In this document: positions 22,635 through 30,455 of the stretch, piece after piece | Position numbering within the stretch: the first letter of the stretch is position 1 | How the letters are laid out: each line of letters opens with the position of its first letter | Assembly: GCA_046292385.1 (NCBI GenBank) | Contig: JBKBRF010000035.1 | Location: 13,500 to 77,499, forward strand | Reading direction: 5' to 3' | Source: Armatimonadota bacterium | GTDB lineage: Bacteria > Armatimonadota > SYMT01 | Length of the DNA: 64,000 bases | Made by a program: the position numbers and the translations under genes | The notes under the pieces: model-generated | The model's database searches: none | The model's input: the letters and a program-made list of their open reading frames with translations, nothing else | What the model was told of the DNA's origin: nothing

Positions 22635-23330
22635 TCACCCGGTCCGGGTGGCTCCTCGCGCGTCCTCCCGCTCCCGGCGCGGCGCCAGCGCCCGGAACTG
22701 CTCCACCGGCAGCTTCACCCCGGCGGAGGAGCCGTCGCGGTTCCTCACGGAGAGGATCACCGCGGTCGCATCCGCCGGCACGCGCAGCGGTCCCGCGTAC
22801 GGCGCGCCGGTGAGCACCAGCGAGTCGAGCGCCTTCCCGCCCACGCCGATCGCCTCCAGCTCGACTCTCGTCACGGCCTCGCGCGGACCGGTCCAGCGCA
22901 CGCGGTACGCCTCGTCGTCCTCGCTCGTCACCTGGATCTGCCGCTTCGCCTCGGAGACGAGGTCTCCCGAGGTGCCGCCAATCACCCGCGAGCGACCGCC
23001 GGGCACCTGGTAGCGAAGCGGCAGTGGGTCGAAGGTCCACGCCAGGAACGGGGTGGCCGGATGGTAGAACTGGAAGATCGGCGTGAGTGAGTACGGGTAG
23101 ACGTACGGAACCGCATAGGCGTAGGGGCTCAGCAGCGCGCCGCCGTAGAAACCGGGATAGTAGGAGTAGGCCAGTGGATACCAGGGCGCGTAGCCGGGGT
23201 AGTAGCTGGTCGGCGTGGAGACGTAGACCTGATGGTAGTAGGCAATCGACGGCCCCGCGTAGCCCTGCGACTGCGCGGGGCTCGCGAGCGCCGCCGCGGC
23301 GGCGGCACAGGTCAGGATGAGCCGGTGCAT
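22635..23330 (-). CDS. Secreted protein with Tyr/Pro-rich N-terminus, function unknown
   Basis: GAGGAGG RBS; signal peptide ending AQS; YYPGYAPWYPLAYSYYPGFYG segment; beta-rich C-terminus. Confidence 0.75.
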   Translation of the reverse strand: MHRLILTCAAAAAALASPAQSQGYAGPSIAYYHQVYVSTPTSYYPGYAPWYPLAYSYYPGFYGGALLSPYAYAVPYVYPYSLTPIFQFYHPATPFLAWTFDPLPLRYQVPGGRSRVIGGTSGDLVSEAKRQIQVTSEDDEAYRVRWTGPREAVTRVELEAIGVGGKALDSLVLTGAPYAGPLRVPADATAVILSVRNRDGSSAGVKLPVEQFRALAPRREREDARGATRTG

Positions 23331-23431
23331 CGGTCGGCCTCCTCGCCGCCGCGTTCCCACGGGTGGGATCCGGAGCGGCGTACGTCTGTATTCCCGCGCT
23401 CCCGCTCCGCCGGAAACGCGATCCCGGAAGA

Positions 23432-23842
23432 TTACTTCGCCACGCTGAACGGGAAAGTGAACTTCGCCTCCGGGTGCCCCGGCCGCGCCACGGTAACGTG
23501 GGCCTCCCACTTCCCCTGGAGGCCAGTCGAGACCTCCCGCGCCTCGTAGTGTCCGGGCGCGGCCTCCATCAGCTGCACGGTCGGGCCCTGCTGCTCGCTG
23601 AACGAGAGGTAGGAGGTGGCGACCTCCACCTGCGCCCCGGTGACCGGCTGTCCCGAGTCGGCGAGCGTGAGCACGAAGGCGGTATCGTGACCCACCCGCG
23701 GCGGCGCCGGCTGGGTAGCGAAGTCCGCGGTCAGCGTTCCCTGCGTCTGCTTCGGCTGCAGCGCAGGTTTAGCGCTGCTGCAGCCGCCCGCGAAGAGCGC
23801 CGCGGCGGCGAGCGCGATCGTTGGCAAAGGGAAGAGCTTCAT
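23432..23842 (-). CDS. YtkA/FixH-like lipoprotein
   Basis: Lipobox AGGC; LTLADSGQPVTGAQVEV...PGHYEA...GKWEAHVTV; AGGAGG RBS. Confidence 0.75.
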   Translation of the reverse strand: MKLFPLPTIALAAAALFAGGCSSAKPALQPKQTQGTLTADFATQPAPPRVGHDTAFVLTLADSGQPVTGAQVEVATSYLSFSEQQGPTVQLMEAAPGHYEAREVSTGLQGKWEAHVTVARPGHPEAKFTFPFSVAK

Positions 23843-23915
23843 CAGCGTGCCTCCTACTCCTATAGTGGCAGGAACGACACACTTCTTCCTCTCGCCCGGC
23901 GGCGACGCGCGCGCG

Positions 23916-24950
23916 TCAATCCTCACGTGTCGCGGCGGGCGGGCGACGGACGGCAGCCGGAACGCGTGAGAGCCGCACGATTCCGCAGCCGTAGTAACAG
24001 TTTCCCGCTACATCCGTGGCCAGGTAGGTCCAGCGCATCCTCCAGGCACCGTACTCCTCGCACCAGCTGAATAGCTTGCTGCTCCGAACCATGCTCCGCG
24101 GTGGAATCCAGCCGTTCTCCGTACCGAAGGCGCGGTCGAACTCCGCGGCTCCGAGCGGTGGATCATCCCGGTCTTCCGCCCGCCGCCAGCGGAACCGGTG
24201 TCGCACGGAAGGCCAGAACTCATCGATCTGGAGGGGGACATCCGTATCGTTTCGGACTTCCGTGACGTAGCTCCAGACGTAGCCCTGCTTTTCCGGATCC
24301 CACCTGACCTCGGCGCAGGGATCTGGAGACAGAGCGACCGTCAGGCCGGGCGAGAGGCGGTAGCGGGCCAGAACCAACCGCTCCACCCAGGCCGGCGCGT
24401 CGAGCTTGCGCAGCTGCCAGATCGTGCGCCGCCGCAGCGAGTCGGTGCTCCAGAAGCCCGCGGGGAGCGTGTCCTGCCACTCTCGCTCGTCCCGCAGCTT
24501 CTCCCCGCCCGGCGCGCGGCGCGTGAGGACCTCCACCGCTCGGTTGCAGATCGCCTCTACCCGAGCGCGCAGCGGGGGCTCGTATCCGATCCCCAGGTGG
24601 AAGAGCCAGGCGTGGGTGGCCTCGTGGATCAGGGTGCCGGCCAGCTCCAGCGCGGTGCGTTCCTCTGAAAGGACTACCTGGCGGCAGAGGTAGACCAGCC
24701 CCAGCGATTGCTTCCACTCCCCGGCAGACCCCAGCGGACCAACGATCAAGATCCCGCGGGCGTGGCGGCGCAGGCGCGCGAAGCGGCCGGGGCTGTAGCT
24801 GGAGATCAGGTCGAGCGCCTGCGCCAACTTGGCAAAGGCCCTCTCCTGCTCTTCGCGCGAGTCGAGGCAGGCCGCGACCCGGATTCCGTGCAGCTCGCGA
24901 GCGGGCAGCCTCCTGAACAGGAACGCGTCGAACCGGTCAGGCACGTTCAT
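23916..24950 (-). CDS. Hypothetical protein: HEXXH domain plus ApaG-like C-terminal domain
   Basis: TLIHEATHAW with downstream E..C; WSYVTEVRNDTDVPLQI resembles the first strands of ApaG. Confidence 0.6.
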   Translation of the reverse strand: MNVPDRFDAFLFRRLPARELHGIRVAACLDSREEQERAFAKLAQALDLISSYSPGRFARLRRHARGILIVGPLGSAGEWKQSLGLVYLCRQVVLSEERTALELAGTLIHEATHAWLFHLGIGYEPPLRARVEAICNRAVEVLTRRAPGGEKLRDEREWQDTLPAGFWSTDSLRRRTIWQLRKLDAPAWVERLVLARYRLSPGLTVALSPDPCAEVRWDPEKQGYVWSYVTEVRNDTDVPLQIDEFWPSVRHRFRWRRAEDRDDPPLGAAEFDRAFGTENGWIPPRSMVRSSKLFSWCEEYGAWRMRWTYLATDVAGNCYYGCGIVRLSRVPAAVRRPPAATRED

Positions 24951-25022
24951 AGGCGGGGCGTTTCGTCGTAGATCTCACGCCGAACGCCGGTACGCTACCC
25001 CAACTCACGGGCGGTCGCCCAC

Positions 25023-25742
25023 TTACCCGGCTGGCGGCGGGATGGTGACCGGGACCCGGGCGGTGTTGTTCTCGGTGCTCTTCTCCAGCAGCCGGCCTTC
25101 CGGGTCGAGGCGGACCTCCAGCGTGTAGTCGCCGGGGGGAAGGCCGGTCACGTCGACCCACTGTCCGTAGAGGTTGGCAGGGTAGACGTCCGACCAGCCG
25201 CGGGAGATGCCGGTGACGAAGCCTTTCAGGCTGCGGTTCACGGGGCAGGTCAGGTAATGCGGCTTCCGGCGCGCGCCGGGAAGCGGCGGATCGACCGGCG
25301 CGGTGTCCATCAGGCAGAAGGAGACCTTCTCCCCACCCGCCACCACCGTCTCATCGGCGGCCAGCAGACGGTACTCCGCCACGGCCAGCAGGTGCCAGTG
25401 GTAGTGCTCTTCGTGGAACTCGAACTCGCCCATGGCGCGAGCGCCGCGCTTGCCGCCCCGGTAGAAGAGGGTCTGCTCCGCCAGCATCGGGTCGCTGCGC
25501 CGCTTGCGGCGGCCGACTACCTCCACCGGTGCGTCGCCCAGGTTCAGGATGACCGTGGGAAAGCGCAGCAGCGTGCGGCCCTCTTCCTCGGAGAAGTAGG
25601 TCTCGGCGAGGTGGGCGGCCGACGGGACGAGGTCCGGCAGCAGCGGCTTCCGGGCGGCGGCCGGGGTGGCCCCGGAAGCGGTGGCGAGGCCGGCCAGCGA
25701 GGCGGCGGCGAGGGCGATCCGGCAGACGCGCAGGGTATTCAT
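25023..25742 (-). CDS. Secreted lysyl oxidase family protein, catalytic motifs intact
   Basis: LPDLVP, LRFPT, FHEEHYHWH, KVSFCLMD, GISRGWSDVY, GQWVDVT.LPPGDYTL and E...ENN. Confidence 0.88.
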   Translation of the reverse strand: MNTLRVCRIALAAASLAGLATASGATPAAARKPLLPDLVPSAAHLAETYFSEEEGRTLLRFPTVILNLGDAPVEVVGRRKRRSDPMLAEQTLFYRGGKRGARAMGEFEFHEEHYHWHLLAVAEYRLLAADETVVAGGEKVSFCLMDTAPVDPPLPGARRKPHYLTCPVNRSLKGFVTGISRGWSDVYPANLYGQWVDVTGLPPGDYTLEVRLDPEGRLLEKSTENNTARVPVTIPPPAG

Positions 25743-25799
25743 CCCGCCGATTGTCGGCGGCGGCGGTCGCTCCCTTGCTCCGCGGAGGGTCGATTCTGT

Positions 25800-26132
25800 C
25801 TATTCCGGAATGATCAGCTCTTCCGCCTCGACCGGGCCCTTCGACGCGAGGGCCTCCCGCGCCACGAGCAGCCAGTAGGGCACCCGCTCGCCGGCCGCCT
25901 CCAGCCGGGTGATGGAAGCCGCAGGGACGTGCAGCGCGTCCTCGCGCGGGCCGCCGCCGCAGTCCGGGCAGAGGTACGGCTTGCCGGGGATCTCGGGGCG
26001 GCAGTTGAGGCAGAGCGCCCGGGAGCAGCCGGCGCACTGGCGCGCGGTGCGGAAGCGGCGGCCGTCCGAGGGGCAGAAGGCGCAGTCCGCCATGCTGGCG
26101 CTGGAGAAGCGTTCACCGGTGGAAGAGGGCAT
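25800..26132 (-). CDS. Small protein with four CxxC pairs (putative double Zn finger)
   Basis: CAFC, CAGC, CLNC and CPDC; GAGGT RBS before ATG 26132; alternative start 26093. Confidence 0.7.
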   Translation of the reverse strand: MPSSTGERFSSASMADCAFCPSDGRRFRTARQCAGCSRALCLNCRPEIPGKPYLCPDCGGGPREDALHVPAASITRLEAAGERVPYWLLVAREALASKGPVEAEELIIPE

Positions 26133-26250
26133 CGGAGGGACCTCGCGAGGGGAGTGGATCGCCCTCATGTTACTCCGTAGAGCAGCAAGTGACCGGCCCC
26201 ACATCGCCCGGTTGACAGCGGCGGGAGGGATACGGAATGGTAGGAGTGTT

Positions 26251-26411
26251 CCGTATTCCGTATCGCGTATCGCGTATTGCGTAGCGGAATGCTCTCACCG
26301 CTCTCCAGCACGTCGTGCCGGGCGAGGCGCCGCAAATAGCCTACCGCCCGGCACGACGCTCTCGCCAGGAGAGCCAGGCACGACGCTACGCAATACGAAA
26401 TACGCAATACG
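26251..26411. repeat. Inverted heptamer-repeat element (CGTATYN arrays flanking an internal inverted repeat)
   Basis: CGTATTGCGTAGCG 26273-26286 pairs with 26384-26397; CGTCGTGCCGGGCG 26311-26324 pairs with 26345-26358. Confidence 0.7.
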
Positions 26412-26495
26412 TACCCGGGGTCACAGTCCGCCTCGGCCGCTGTGCCCCCGCCGCGCCCGCCGCGCCACTTTGGGCCGAGAGAGGAGGCACGGTCG

Positions 26496-27179
26496 ATGTT
26501 TCGACTCGAAACCGCCGTCGTCCTGACGACGGCTGCGTTATTCGGCTTTGCCGCCGTAGGTACGGCGGCCCCCGCAAAAGGCAAGAAGGCTCCCGCTAAA
26601 CCGGCGAAGAAGACGACCCCCGCAAAGCCTGCCGCGAAGAAGACGGCCGCGCCGGCCGCGAAGCCGGTCGCCGCCGGGGTGGAGGCGCTCCGCAGCGCCG
26701 GCGTTCACGTGATGGAGCTGGCGCAGAACGACGACCGGCTGGAAGTGAGCTTCCATCTCCTGGGGGCTCAGGTGAAGGACGCCAACCTCGCGCCGCTCGC
26801 CTCGATGAAGAAGGTGGTGCGGGTCAACCTCGCCGGCACCGGGATCACCGACGCCGGTCTCGCCCACCTGAAGGGCCTGACCGACCTGACGAACCTCCAC
26901 CTGGAGAAGACGAAGATCACCGACGCCGGCCTGGCGCACCTGAAGGGCCTCGCCAATCTGGAGTACCTGAACCTCTACGGGACGCAGGTGACCGACGCCG
27001 GGCTGCAGCAGCTCGCCGGCCTCAAGAAGCTGAAGAGCCTCTACGTGTGGCAGACCCGCGTGACGGAGGACGGCGTGGCGAAGCTCCGGCAGACGCTGCC
27101 GCAGGTCGCCGTGATCCGCGGCGTCGACGCCCAGCCCGCCCAGGCAACCGCGACGACCACCGCCGCCGAGAAGAAGTAG
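26496..27179 (+). CDS. Secreted leucine-rich-repeat protein with Lys/Ala/Pro-rich N-terminus
   Basis: GAGGAGG RBS; signal peptide; repeated L.L..T.ITDAGL.HL..L. Confidence 0.9.
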   Translation: MFRLETAVVLTTAALFGFAAVGTAAPAKGKKAPAKPAKKTTPAKPAAKKTAAPAAKPVAAGVEALRSAGVHVMELAQNDDRLEVSFHLLGAQVKDANLAPLASMKKVVRVNLAGTGITDAGLAHLKGLTDLTNLHLEKTKITDAGLAHLKGLANLEYLNLYGTQVTDAGLQQLAGLKKLKSLYVWQTRVTEDGVAKLRQTLPQVAVIRGVDAQPAQATATTTAAEKK

Positions 27180-27280
27180 GGGATGCCAGGCATATTGGGG
27201 CCGCTGTGGGAGTCCGCGGGTGAGTCTCACAGCGGCTCCAGCGCGGCCCCGGGTATCGGGAGTGAGTGGCCGGGTTGTGG

Positions 27281-27330
27281 CCTCGGACTGAAGTCGAGGC
27301 TACAGAAAGCGAAGCCCGCCTGCGCGGGCT
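27281..27330 (+). repeat. REP-like double-hairpin element, copy 2
   Basis: CCTCGGACT-GA-AGTCGAGG, GCTAC, then AGCCCGC-CTGC-GCGGGCT. Confidence 0.55.
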
Positions 27331-27434
27331 GAGGGGCCGAAGCTAGGTCGGGCAGTGGCTACTTTTGATCTCCTCCGGCCGGAAGTTTTCACGTCCACGT
27401 AGGGCGATTCGCTCGGGCGGGACGCGCGGAGTGC

Positions 27435-27869
27435 ATGTCCATGCTCGATCTGGATGCGCCTATAGTCCCCGGCCTATGCGCCGCCGGCATCAGTCTTGGG
27501 GAGAGCGCTGAAACGATTCTCGCGTGGCGGCCAAACCGCGAGTCCATCCTCCCCGATGGTTGCACGCGCCTGGAGTTCGGACCGGTCCACGTGTGGCTGA
27601 AAGATCAGGCAGTGATGCAGATCGGCGTCTACCGCGGCTATACCGGGAGATTGGCGGAGAGGATCGGAATCGCCTCGACTATCGCCGAAGTCGAGTCATT
27701 GCTTGGGCCGGTGATCGAGGACGAAGAAGACAATCTGGTTGTGGCTGCGGTCCCGGGTTGGTGCTTCGAAACCGAGGAATGGGTACGCCAGGGTGGTCCG
27801 CGCAAAAACACGGTCTCCCGGATAGTAGGGATTTTCGTCTTTCAGGCCGATCGCGAGCTCGCGCCATGA
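27435..27869 (+). CDS. Hypothetical protein
   Basis: GGAG RBS; globular-looking 144-aa ORF with less GC-biased codon use. Confidence 0.65.
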   Translation: MSMLDLDAPIVPGLCAAGISLGESAETILAWRPNRESILPDGCTRLEFGPVHVWLKDQAVMQIGVYRGYTGRLAERIGIASTIAEVESLLGPVIEDEEDNLVVAAVPGWCFETEEWVRQGGPRKNTVSRIVGIFVFQADRELAP

Positions 27870-27893
27870 GTGGGAGAGCTCGATCGCTTCTAG

Positions 27894-28754
27894 TCACCGC
27901 TGCCAGAGCTGGGTGAGCCAGTAAATCGCCGGGGCGGCGAAGAGGAGGCTGTCGAAGCGGTCCAGGATCCCGCCGTGGCCCGGCATCAGCGTGCCGAAGT
28001 CTTTCACGCCGATCTCCCGTTTGATGGCGCTCTTGCTCAGGTCCCCGAGCTGCGAGACGACGCCGGTCAGCGCCCCCCCGGCCAGGGCGAAGGCGGTGGG
28101 GAGGCCCAGCAGCGCTCCAAGGCCCCACGCCACCAGCACGGACGCGATAAAGCCGCCGACCGCGCCCTCCCACGTCTTGCCGGGACTCACCTCCGGCGCC
28201 AGCTTGTGGCGGCCCCACCGCTTTCCCACGAGGTAGGCGCCCGTATCGGTAGAGCTGGTGGTCACCAGCACCCAGAGCAGCAGCCAGGCTCCCTCGCCCA
28301 TGGCAGCCATCCAGTCGGGCAGGCCCGTCAGCGGTGTTAGGGGCAGCAACCGCAGCCGAAGCAGGTAGGGGAAGAGCCAGCCGATATAGAAGGCGCCGAA
28401 CCAGGTGGCGGGGAGCGCCTTGAGGGGCGCGCGGTCGCGGCGCAGCGCTTCCCACGCGAGGCTGCCGGTGAGCAGCAGCGTGAGACCGAACTGGAGAGTC
28501 ACGTCCGCAGCGCCGCGGAGCAGGGGAGTGGCCGCGAGGAGGAAGAGCAGCGCCGCGGCGTAGCCGACCCCTTCCCGGGGGAGCAGCCCGGCCTGCCGGC
28601 ACCCGTGATAGAGCTCCCACATCGCCCCGACGGTGAGCAGCAGCACCAGCAGCGCCAGCGGCCAGCCCCGGAACGGCGCGTCCCCACCGGGCCAGAGAAC
28701 CATCCCCAGCACGATCGGGGCGGCGACGAGGGCGCTCAGCAGGCGGACGAGCAT
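27894..28754 (-). CDS. cdsA: Phosphatidate cytidylyltransferase
   Basis: DTGAYLVG, SPGKTWEG and GDLSKSAIKR..GVKDFG.LMPGHGGILDRFDS. Confidence 0.95.
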   Translation of the reverse strand: MLVRLLSALVAAPIVLGMVLWPGGDAPFRGWPLALLVLLLTVGAMWELYHGCRQAGLLPREGVGYAAALLFLLAATPLLRGAADVTLQFGLTLLLTGSLAWEALRRDRAPLKALPATWFGAFYIGWLFPYLLRLRLLPLTPLTGLPDWMAAMGEGAWLLLWVLVTTSSTDTGAYLVGKRWGRHKLAPEVSPGKTWEGAVGGFIASVLVAWGLGALLGLPTAFALAGGALTGVVSQLGDLSKSAIKREIGVKDFGTLMPGHGGILDRFDSLLFAAPAIYWLTQLWQR

Positions 28755-28952
28755 GACGGGTGAGAGGTGCTGGAGTAGGAGGCTGCCGGAGGCCGTGCGG
28801 GCGGAGCCGTGGCTGCGGGAAGGCGGCCGGGCGTTGGATATGTCTTAACACGCCCCGCGCGGGGCGTCCATGCGAACGCAGGTGGCCGGTCGCGGTACGT
28901 TGAAGCTATGCTGTCCGGGGTGGCCCTCCGTCACTCCATGTAAGAGAGAAGT

Positions 28953-29651
28953 ATGCGCAGTCCGTTCCCGCTCTTCGGTGCCCTCTTCGGTCTATCGCTC
29001 CTGATGCTCCCGTCTCCGGCCTCCTCCGGCAAGGGCAAGCGGCTGCTGCTGCCGGACCTGGTGCCCGCGGAAGGGACCGGCGGGCGCATGTTCGTGGAAG
29101 AGCTCGGCTCGCAGAAGCTGCTGCGCTTCGACGCCTACTTCGCCAACGTGGGCGACGGTCCGCTCACTCTCACCGGCCGCGCGAAGAAGGCGAAGAAGCG
29201 GCTTCCCGCCTGGCAGTCGGTGCGGCGCCTGGGGAAGAAGCCGCCGTTCAAGCACCCGATCGGCGAGTTCACCTGGCAGCCGGAGCGGGTGAAGTGGTCG
29301 CTCTTCCCGGTGGCGGAGTACCGCCTCCGGAACGAGGGCGGGCAGGTCGCCGCGCAGACCAAGATCTCGTTCTGCATGGTCGACAACGTGCGCGTGGCGC
29401 CCGACCTCCCCGGCAGCCCCACCGCCGGCGTCTACGTCACCTGCCCCGCTACTTCACGGCGGAAGAGCATCCAGATCGGCGTCTCCGTCGGCTGGGCCGA
29501 CATCTACAAGGCGGAGCACCTGGGCCAGTGGATCGACGTCACGGACGTGCCCCCCGGCGACTACACGCTGGAAGTGGAGATCGATCCGGAAGGCCGCCTG
29601 CTGGAGAAAGACCGGTCGAACAACCGGGTGACCCTGCCGGTCACTCTCTGA
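28953..29651 (+). CDS. Secreted lysyl oxidase family paralogue lacking the copper-binding histidines
   Basis: LPDLVP, LRFD, KISFCMVD, GVSVGWADIY and GQWIDVTDVPPGDYTL; His motif replaced by TWQPERVKWS. Confidence 0.85.
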   Translation: MRSPFPLFGALFGLSLLMLPSPASSGKGKRLLLPDLVPAEGTGGRMFVEELGSQKLLRFDAYFANVGDGPLTLTGRAKKAKKRLPAWQSVRRLGKKPPFKHPIGEFTWQPERVKWSLFPVAEYRLRNEGGQVAAQTKISFCMVDNVRVAPDLPGSPTAGVYVTCPATSRRKSIQIGVSVGWADIYKAEHLGQWIDVTDVPPGDYTLEVEIDPEGRLLEKDRSNNRVTLPVTL

Positions 29652-29807: not shown

Positions 29808-29881
29808 CGGGGTGTAGCGCAGCTTGGTAGCGCGCCTGCTTTGGGAGCAGGAGGTCGCAGGTTCGAATCCTGTCGCCCCGA
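29808..29881 (+). tRNA. tRNA-Pro (TGG), CCA not encoded
   Basis: Acceptor CGGGGTG/CGCCCCG+A; D arm TAGCGCAGCTTGGTAGCGC; anticodon arm CCTGC-TTTGGGA-GCAGG; T loop GGTTCGAATCC. Confidence 0.97.
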
Positions 29882-29979
29882 CTTTCCCCCGCCTCCGGTG
29901 TCCGCCCCGGCACCATCTCCCCGTCCAGCCCAGTTCGTGGCACGCAGGTCTTGTTGCGCGTGCACGCGCAGCCCCTCGC

Positions 29980-30455
29980 CAGGGATCTACGTCGCCCCCT
30001 TCGCTCGGGAGCGGGAGGCCTCACGCACGGATGCGCCCGGACGCTAGAGTCCGCGTTACCCGTCTGCGTACTCCGGACCAGTACGGCTGCCGAGATCCTT
30101 CCCTGCGTTCTCAAGAAACTCCCCCTCGAGCCAGCCCCATCGGATCAGCGTCAACCCAGCGTGAGCACAGCTCCGTCCCCGGTGGTCATCCTGACCGCAG
30201 GGAAGGATCTACGTCACTCGGCTCTCCAGAGGTACGGTGAGCACCCGCGTTCGGGAGCGCTCCGTCAGGCCGCGTCCTCGTCACTCCGATGCGTGCGCCG
30301 GACCAAGCCGGCTGCCGAGATTCTTCACTGCGTTCAGAATGACAAATTCGGTGAAAGGTGCCTGGGTCGGAGTGGATGACGGTGATCGATGGGCGACCCT
30401 CCCGTTTCTTCGGGCGGTGGTTGGCCCTCGGCCGTGCCTGCGGCTCAGGATGACT
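29980..30455. repeat. Cluster of alternating-orientation GAGATCCTTCNCTGCGNTCAGGATGAC REP-like repeats
   Basis: Copies at about 30084-30113 (+), 30186-30210 (-) and 30309-30343 (+); partial copies at 29982 (-) and 30437-30454 (+). Confidence 0.7.

Follow-up and report, generated by a model that had tools for sequence, protein, structure and literature searches.

Does a bacterial lysyl oxidase (LOX) gene, flanked at short distances by genes on the same strand, mark a dedicated protein cross-linking system, or does the enzyme stand alone? The question is raised by a 64,000-nucleotide stretch of an Armatimonadota genome (GTDB lineage SYMT01; assembly GCA_046292385.1, contig JBKBRF010000035.1, positions 13,500 to 77,499 of the forward strand), referred to here as the window. 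A first-pass annotation of this DNA proposed an extracytoplasmic copper/lysine tyrosylquinone (LTQ) system that oxidizes or cross-links surface proteins and comprises a LOX enzyme, a possible copper chaperone and possible substrates. In our comparative analysis, the enzyme held up and the system of chaperone and substrates did not. Most probably, the LOX protein, denoted LOX-A, is a stand-alone, Sec-exported, minimal LOX-family enzyme encoded outside any conserved operon, with functionally unrelated neighbors, and the second LOX-like protein of the window, LOX-B, is a diverged, non-canonical paralog.

The enzyme and its copper motif map as follows.

25023..25742, minus strand: LOX-A, a secreted-looking LOX-family catalytic domain protein of 239 amino acids (Pfam PF01186; LOXL2 alignment)
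25386..25424, minus strand: LOX-A copper motif FEFHEEHYHWHLL, residues 107-119, aligned to WIWHDCHRHYHSM of LOXL2

The assignment of this gene to the LOX family was confirmed by a hidden Markov model (HMM) search, in which the Pfam Lysyl_oxidase profile PF01186 matched with E 3.3e-22 (79.5 bits against a cut-off of 20.4), and by a phmmer match to human LOXL2 (PDB 5ZE3; E 5.8e-12), with all catalytic residues in place. The three motifs singled out by the annotation are present: FHEEHYHWH aligns with HDCHRHYH of LOXL2 (which contains CHRHYH), KVSFCL with KASFCL, and WSDVY with WDMY; in addition, LPDLV aligns with APDLV and EKSTENN with ESDYSNN. Residue by residue, H113, H115 and H117 of LOX-A correspond to His626, His628 and His630 of LOXL2, with H110 present besides; K139 and Y187 correspond to K653 and Y689, the C143/C166 pair to C657/C673, and D37, L38, E220, N225 and N226 to D549, L550, E722, N727 and N728. 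The LOXL2 structure report describes these as the metal ligands (His626, His628, His630), the LTQ precursors (Lys653, Tyr689), the Cys657-Cys673 disulfide and a calcium site, respectively (PMC5899467). K139, Y187, D37, E220 and N226 are invariant across an alignment of 19 homologs. The N-terminus, MNTLRVCRIALAAASLAGLATASGA, resembles a Sec signal as judged by eye, and the catalytic domain of about 205 residues begins straight after it, with neither a propeptide nor an extra domain. Judged by its sequence, LOX-A is a real, apparently intact, secreted-looking bacterial lysyl oxidase.

By homology with LOXL2 and with the archaeal HTU-LOX, His113, His115 and His117 would hold Cu(II); copper and O2 would turn Tyr187 into a quinone, which Lys139 would capture to yield the LTQ cofactor. 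Outside the cytoplasm, the mature enzyme would then oxidize primary amines, either peptidyl lysine or small amines, to aldehydes, with release of NH3 and H2O2.

As an enzyme, LOX-A is ordinary: bacterial LOX proteins with the HxHxH core and the LTQ residues have been reported since 2015 (Grau-Bove et al. 2015, PMC4448552), and one archaeal LOX is active, the refolded protein being described as active only with Cu2+, inhibited by beta-aminopropionitrile (BAPN) and relaxed in its substrate specificity (PMC6452851). An exhaustive HMMER search for LOX yielded 5,656 cluster representatives at E <= 0.001, and the loci verified by pattern scans numbered 362 in species-representative genomes, spread over many phyla, and no fewer than 569 in metagenomes; the locus search was made with an alignment of 12 closer sequences. 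With a crude gene caller, 70 LOX open reading frames (ORFs) were kept from 80 genome loci, the 10 loci without an ORF being dropped, and HxHxH, Lys and Tyr are all kept in 69 of these 70 ORFs, the exception looking like a mis-called frame. Closer to the window the distribution is patchy, with LOX-like genes in 4 of 41 genomes among relatives and in 13 of 401 genomes of the phylum, counting the 7.0-Mb, 91-contig genome that carries the window (G000). H110 of LOX-A, at window positions 25413-25415, corresponds to the initial His of the WxWHxCHxHYH motif in animals; all four histidines (HHHH) are present in 49 of 72 rows made up of the 70 ORFs, LOX-A and LOX-B.

The proposed partners of LOX-A are encoded in the following genes.

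22635..23330, minus strand: Tyr/Pro-rich, secreted-looking protein of 231 residues with a conserved C-terminal domain (composition; synteny on the UbiD side)
23432..23842, minus strand: YtkA-domain lipoprotein (PF13115, 30.0 bits against a cut-off of 25.9)
23916..24950, minus strand: HExxH protein of 344 amino acids, without a signal peptide, directly downstream of LOX-A after a gap of 72 nucleotides (nt); the motif HEATH is present
25800..26204, minus strand: zinc-ribbon-like protein with four CxxC pairs, without a signal peptide, possibly starting at 26093
26442..27179, plus strand: secreted-looking protein of 245 residues with a Lys/Ala/Pro-rich linker and leucine-rich repeats (LRR; LRR_8, E 2e-11)

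The gene positions given by the first-pass annotation proved sound. In this high-GC DNA (0.66-0.72 around the LOX locus), all listed genes are open frames with a coding-type third-position GC of 0.84-0.96, compared with 0.67-0.71 in overlapping alternative frames. The co-directional run on which the proposal leaned likewise exists, with gaps of 57-101 nt among the five genes from the Tyr/Pro-rich to the zinc-finger protein, all on one strand. It is not, however, specific to the LOX neighborhood. From 17.4 to 26.2 kb of the window, all convincing genes lie on the minus strand, in the map order dGTPase-like HD protein, PyrF, RNase H, UbiA, UbiD, Tyr/Pro-rich protein, YtkA lipoprotein, HExxH protein, LOX-A and four-CxxC protein, with 70 nt between the Tyr/Pro-rich gene and UbiD. 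Because the run thus extends into housekeeping genes, co-direction is not a special feature of the LOX surroundings. A promoter and terminator scan returned no promoter-like sites; the three terminator-like sites it gave compare with a chance expectation of 3.1, and all of them lie outside the relevant gaps.

The proposed system was then examined through the conservation of its parts. Window proteins were compared by tblastn (E <= 0.01) with 80 LOX loci from genomes, each with at most 8 kb of flank, and 80 from metagenomes. LOX matched in all 160 loci. The YtkA, HExxH, zinc-finger, Tyr/Pro-rich and LRR proteins, as well as the predicted product of the small frame orf144, matched in none of the 80 genome loci and none of the 80 metagenome loci. 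Pfam scans of 129 immediate neighbors of 70 LOX genes detected neither YtkA nor an HExxH family, and when 17,973 ORFs from all six frames of 173 LOX loci were searched with a custom YtkA HMM, the window's own gene was the sole match. Among six genomes of the same family (G001-G006), LOX-like genes occur in two, G004 and G006, and none of the neighbor genes of LOX-A is present on the LOX contigs of either. Conversely, no LOX match was obtained in G001, G002 and G005 (95, 80 and 97% complete), and orthologs of the YtkA, Tyr/Pro-rich, LRR and zinc-finger proteins occur in same-family genomes without a LOX match, four of the five neighbors being found in G005. The co-conservation of neighbors, whose absence had been set beforehand as a refuting outcome for the proposal, was therefore not found: neither the 160 loci nor the LOX loci of G004 and G006 carry the proposed partners.

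Two explanations would tie LOX-A to its neighbors. According to one, the locus encodes a dedicated extracytoplasmic copper/LTQ cross-linking system in which the YtkA protein delivers copper, the HExxH and zinc-finger proteins have accessory roles, and the substrates are the Tyr/Pro-rich and LRR proteins. The genes are indeed adjacent or within 1.5 kb, with the five on one strand at the short gaps given above; the delivery of copper to a cuproenzyme has been linked to the YtkA family (PMC13344008); and the linker of the LRR protein contains many lysines among alanines and prolines. All the same, we consider such a system highly improbable. Since the neighbors are not co-conserved with LOX, either across the other 160 loci or in the same family, a cross-linking locus is not supported; four of the five neighbors persist in genomes without a LOX match; and the co-directional run reaches unrelated housekeeping genes. 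The YtkA protein does not co-occur with LOX, having orthologs in three genomes without a LOX match (G001, G002 and G005) and none among the other LOX loci examined, so that its casting as a copper chaperone for LOX is not borne out. The supposed accessories, the HExxH and zinc-finger proteins, lack signal peptides. The Tyr/Pro-rich protein is indeed rich in these residues, as annotated (21 Tyr and 22 Pro in 231 residues), but none of its three lysines lies in the Tyr/Pro-rich part; it would therefore be a poor LOX substrate, and it is not co-conserved with LOX. The description of the LRR protein as Lys/Ala-rich is accurate as well (23 Lys and 44 Ala among 245 residues, plus the LRR_8 match), but its orthologs are distributed independently of LOX and never lie on a LOX contig. 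The roughly 160 other LOX loci without an accompanying copper chaperone fit self-loading of copper outside the cytoplasm.

The other explanation is narrower, namely, a two-gene module specific to G000, in which the HExxH protein processes or modifies LOX-A or its substrate, as a metallopeptidase or as a peptide hydroxylase of the alpha-ketoglutarate (aKG)-HExxH type, loosely analogous to lysyl hydroxylase or BMP-1 upstream of animal LOX. The two genes share a strand across the 72-nt gap and are both missing from the syntenic place in relatives, and the third-position GC of the HExxH gene (0.84) is slightly below that of its neighbors, consistent with recent arrival. The N-terminus of the protein weakly matches TIGR04267 (aKG-HExxH peptide beta-hydroxylase; E 8.8e-9); this match, however, scores 35.6 bits against a cut-off of 40 and spans profile positions 1-80 of 177, about half of the model. 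The protein also lacks a signal peptide whereas LOX-A looks exported, has no homolog in LOX loci or in the protein index and hence provides no co-occurrence evidence, and yielded a fold model with a pLDDT (predicted local distance difference test) of 39. On balance, we regard this module as very unlikely. 

Several points nevertheless weigh against a LOX-A that stands alone. The metagenome loci are often short (median about 3.9 kb), so that their flanks test the nearest genes only, and signal peptides of all window proteins were judged by eye from their N-termini. With gaps of 57-101 nt on one strand and no terminator-like site between the genes, co-transcription of the zinc-finger, LOX-A, HExxH and YtkA genes is possible. 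A lineage-specific functional link may exist that is compatible with the comparative genomics, the arrangement being seen in this genome only. Finally, given that the YtkA family handles extracytoplasmic copper, opportunistic supply of copper to LOX-A would be chemically plausible.

A stand-alone LOX-A also accords with the histories of the neighbors taken singly. The distribution and synteny of their orthologs place the YtkA and Tyr/Pro-rich genes in what appears to be an older block on the UbiD side and mark the HExxH and LOX-A genes as apparent lineage-specific insertions; the LRR and zinc-finger genes, for their part, look like family genes that are nearby by chance. The annotation of the lipoprotein as YtkA/FixH-like is half right, with PF13115 above its cut-off and the FixH model below (18.3 bits against 23). 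YtkA orthologs, 42-49% identical, are found in G001, G002 and G005, at 3.8 kb from UbiD in G005 (order dGTPase, PyrF, RNase H, UbiA, UbiD, two genes, YtkA) and 2.6 kb in G002 (YtkA, a GHMP-kinase-like gene, a Gly/Tyr/Phe-rich secreted protein, UbiD). A role in CuA assembly, as described for YtkA/CtaK in cytochrome caa3 (PMC13344008), would explain the persistence of the gene where no LOX was found. The Tyr/Pro-rich protein's C-terminal domain is 42% identical to that of the Gly/Tyr/Phe-rich gene product encoded directly upstream of UbiD in G002.

The HExxH protein, labeled HEXXH/ApaG-like in the first-pass annotation, retains the first half of that label through its HEATH motif and loses the second, as no ApaG (DUF525) family was listed at E <= 0.1. 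Its matches to DUF6782, SprT-like and TIGR04267 are all below cut-off. It was found in G000 only, among 21 genomes, and retrieved only itself from an index of 5.8 billion proteins; its Atlas structural neighbors are hypothetical proteins and DUF6782, and its single-sequence AlphaFold2 model (pLDDT 39.3) is unusable. It is probably a lineage-specific orphan, outside any LOX system. The zinc-finger call is backed by the four CxxC pairs, with no Pfam family matching the protein; its orthologs, 52-57% identical, occur in three of the six same-family genomes (G004, G005 and G006), in none of them on a LOX contig. LRR orthologs, 50-64% identical, are present in five of the six, including G001, G003 and G005, which gave no LOX match, and the sixth genome, G002, contributes only a match to the repeats themselves (39%).

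The second LOX-like gene of the window is separated from LOX-A by a housekeeping gene.

27894..28754, minus strand: CdsA, phosphatidate cytidylyltransferase (PF01148, E 8e-58)
28953..29651, plus strand: LOX-B, secreted-looking LOX-fold paralog of 232 amino acids (PF01186), without copper histidines
29808..29882, plus strand: tRNA-Pro(TGG) (ARAGORN; Rfam, 68.3 bits), 157 nt downstream of LOX-B

LOX-B belongs to the LOX family, as annotated (PF01186, E 1.2e-15, 58.2 bits against the cut-off of 20.4), and is 42% identical to LOX-A, but the annotation missed that all copper histidines are replaced: Q109, R112, K114 and S116 stand in place of H110, H113, H115 and H117. The protein retains K137, Y185, C141/C164 and the calcium-site residues. 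Its AlphaFold2 model, built from a 44-sequence alignment (pLDDT 91.6; predicted template modeling score, pTM, 0.83), finds human LOXL2 (5ZE3) as the best PDB match in Foldseek (E 1.6e-9; TM score 0.59 by query), and LOX-B is accordingly modeled with the LOX beta-sandwich fold. Given its residues, LOX-B is incapable of acting as a canonical copper enzyme.

The loss of the histidines is not confined to this gene. A third copy in G000, LOX-C on contig C78, is also His-less, and a maximum-likelihood tree of 32 rows places LOX-B and LOX-C as sisters (support 98/93) within a six-member His-less clade (support 100/97), with LOX-A grouping elsewhere; two further His-deficient proteins represent independent losses. 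The clade has diverged to 31-48% identity with both LTQ residues kept. Altogether, 13 of 172 collected proteins are His-deficient, in a set biased by a search profile built from His-less sequences, and every one of them retains Lys and Tyr. A profile of six His-less proteins retrieved only two weak loci from genome contigs. Thus, LOX-B is a diverged paralog whose clade is devoid of the copper ligands, through loss, while the fold, the calcium site and both LTQ residues persist. No description of a bacterial His-less LOX clade was found in the LOX literature searched.

Outside the window, two members of this group adjoin genes of the di-heme CCP_MauG family (CCP, cytochrome c peroxidase). LOX-C is followed by such a gene (G000:C78, L015 1-1826, minus strand) that overlaps its stop codon by about 20 nt, scores 34.3 bits against the PF03150 cut-off of 25.6 and is cut by the contig end. 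In G004 (G004:C173, L014 3607-5711, minus strand), the sole LOX-like gene is His-deficient, contains an in-frame TAG and is followed after 38 nt by a gene for a 457-residue di-heme homolog, 51% identical to the neighbor of LOX-C. None of the His-containing LOX loci examined has a di-heme gene alongside, and tblastn with the di-heme protein over the 226 sequences collected revealed no other LOX locus with such a gene and nothing in the window. At least four di-heme paralogs are encoded in G000. The CxxCH motifs C73xxC76H and C337xxC340H are invariant in four paralogs, and scores against the equivalog models are far below cut-off (MauG, 38.6 against 444; MbnH, 49.4 against 363). Y435 of the G004 protein aligns with Y294 of MauG, a position occupied in the Nitrosomonas europaea CCP by a Met, presumably the axial ligand there. 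In MauG, Tyr294 is described as an axial heme ligand (PMC6405878). We also considered a fragment on contig C90 as the missing end of the LOX-C-adjacent gene and rejected it: G000:C90:1-555 and G000:C78:1-285 are 90.5% identical over the 285-nt overlap, indicative of another copy, not joined. The breaks of the G000 assembly at the C78 and C90 ends seem to stem from a duplicated region that may hold a further LOX-like gene.

How, then, might a LOX protein without copper ligands have survived? It could be a catalytically dead pseudo-enzyme that persists as a binding or structural surface protein, with Lys and Tyr kept for the fold. The loss of all copper ligands speaks for this, as do the accounts of LTQ formation as an autocatalytic process that requires copper in LOXL2 and LOX (PMC5899467, PMC11951088), and the window contains no MauG-like gene. 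The residue conservation argues the other way: none of the 13 His-deficient representatives has lost Lys or Tyr, even though they include three lineages with independent histidine loss and a clade as diverged as the one described above, and in the LOXL2 precursor the Lys, 16.6 A from the Tyr, is reported in a position with no obvious structural role (PMC5899467). We give this explanation slightly less than an even chance. Alternatively, the His-less clade (LOX-B, LOX-C, the G004 copy and metagenomic relatives) might be alive, with a MauG/MbnH-like di-heme enzyme, its heme Tyr-ligated, installing a quinone or Lys-Tyr cross-link by remote oxidation, a copper-independent, LTQ-type route in which LOX-B would be served in trans by a paralogous di-heme gene. 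MauG and MbnH are described as oxidizing residues in partner proteins whose genes lie close by (PMC11951088). The pairing is nevertheless limited to two related genomes, the di-heme gene has several paralogs in G000 and scores far below the equivalog cut-offs, LOX-B has no such neighbor, and the G004 LOX gene may be a pseudogene; we therefore deem this route unlikely. If it does exist, the clade and the di-heme gene would make an LTQ-type cofactor without copper. A coherent bacterial LOX-fold clade in which the copper site was lost and the LTQ residues persist, and in which a MauG-like gene comes next in two cases, is a modest, testable lead.

Other observations concern the surroundings of LOX genes in general and the remainder of the window. 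Among the 129 immediate neighbors of the 70 LOX genes, Peptidase_M23 recurs seven times (loci L035, L037, L048, L067, L076, L081, L090), as does GSDH (PF07995, glucose/sorbosone dehydrogenase; L037, L059, L061, L069, L078, L082, L083), and the record titles of the loci in both sets span several phyla. We set aside Cu-oxidase_4 as a LOX partner (2 of the 129 neighbors, insufficient), as well as associations with CdsA, found within about 4 kb of LOX in three loci (two titled Propionibacteriaceae), and with glycosyltransferase family 2 (GT2), near LOX in two metagenome loci, both too few. In the window itself, orf144 (27435-27869, plus strand) matches no family, and its third-position GC is only 0.70, compared with 0.84-0.96 in its neighbors; either the gene is not real or it is a recent acquisition. 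A match to the Rfam family CRISPR-DR28 at 27308-27331 (plus strand; 35.4 against 35 bits) is single, without a surrounding repeat array, and was rejected as most likely due to chance. Downstream of the tRNA-Pro gene, a repeat of about 65 nt occurs at 30049-30110 and 30274-30335; at least 44 copies are scattered genome-wide, often paired at about 215-225 nt, with one copy 3.5 kb from LOX-C. The RNA structure of the 301-nt repeat unit is not unusual (z -0.9). Between 42001 and 46000 the GC content falls to 0.605-0.62, compared with about 0.69 elsewhere, and long ORFs are few; this segment may be foreign or non-coding DNA.

LOX-A is closest in kind to the prokaryotic LOX proteins described so far, namely those of the 2015 survey (PMC4448552) and HTU-LOX of Haloterrigena turkmenica (PMC6452851). 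As these sources portray them, they share with LOX-A a build of just one LOX domain, which a signal peptide may or may not precede, the conserved HxHxH copper core and LTQ Lys and Tyr, and a patchy distribution suggestive of horizontal transfer. LOX-A differs in having H110, the first histidine of the animal motif, which the survey states to be absent from bacterial sequences (PMC4448552). Compared with human LOXL2, LOX-A aligns with the catalytic domain at the copper histidines, the LTQ Lys and Tyr, one Cys pair and the calcium-site residues, but at about 205 residues it has neither SRCR domains nor a propeptide and retains one of the five disulfides of that domain. The YtkA lipoprotein resembles CtaK/YtkA of Bacillus subtilis, likewise a membrane-anchored lipoprotein with a YtkA domain. 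CtaK, however, is reported to serve the CuA center of cytochrome caa3 (PMC13344008), and nothing ties the window's protein, with its orthologs where no LOX was found, to LOX.

LOX-B finds its counterpart in the LOX-like proteins of the acidophilic red algae Cyanidium caldarium and Cyanidioschyzon merolae, which are described as having kept the LTQ Lys and Tyr and lost the copper-site histidines (PMC6508830, PMC4448552); unlike LOX-B, these are eukaryotic and glycosylated. The LOX-C and G004 pairs recall MauG with pre-methylamine dehydrogenase (MADH) and MbnH with MbnP, in that the enzyme belongs to the di-heme CCP_MauG family, with two CxxCH motifs and a Tyr at the position of Tyr294. They differ from these systems in that the putative partner has the LOX fold instead of being MADH or MbnP, and the pairing is known from two related genomes, with both loci outside the window.

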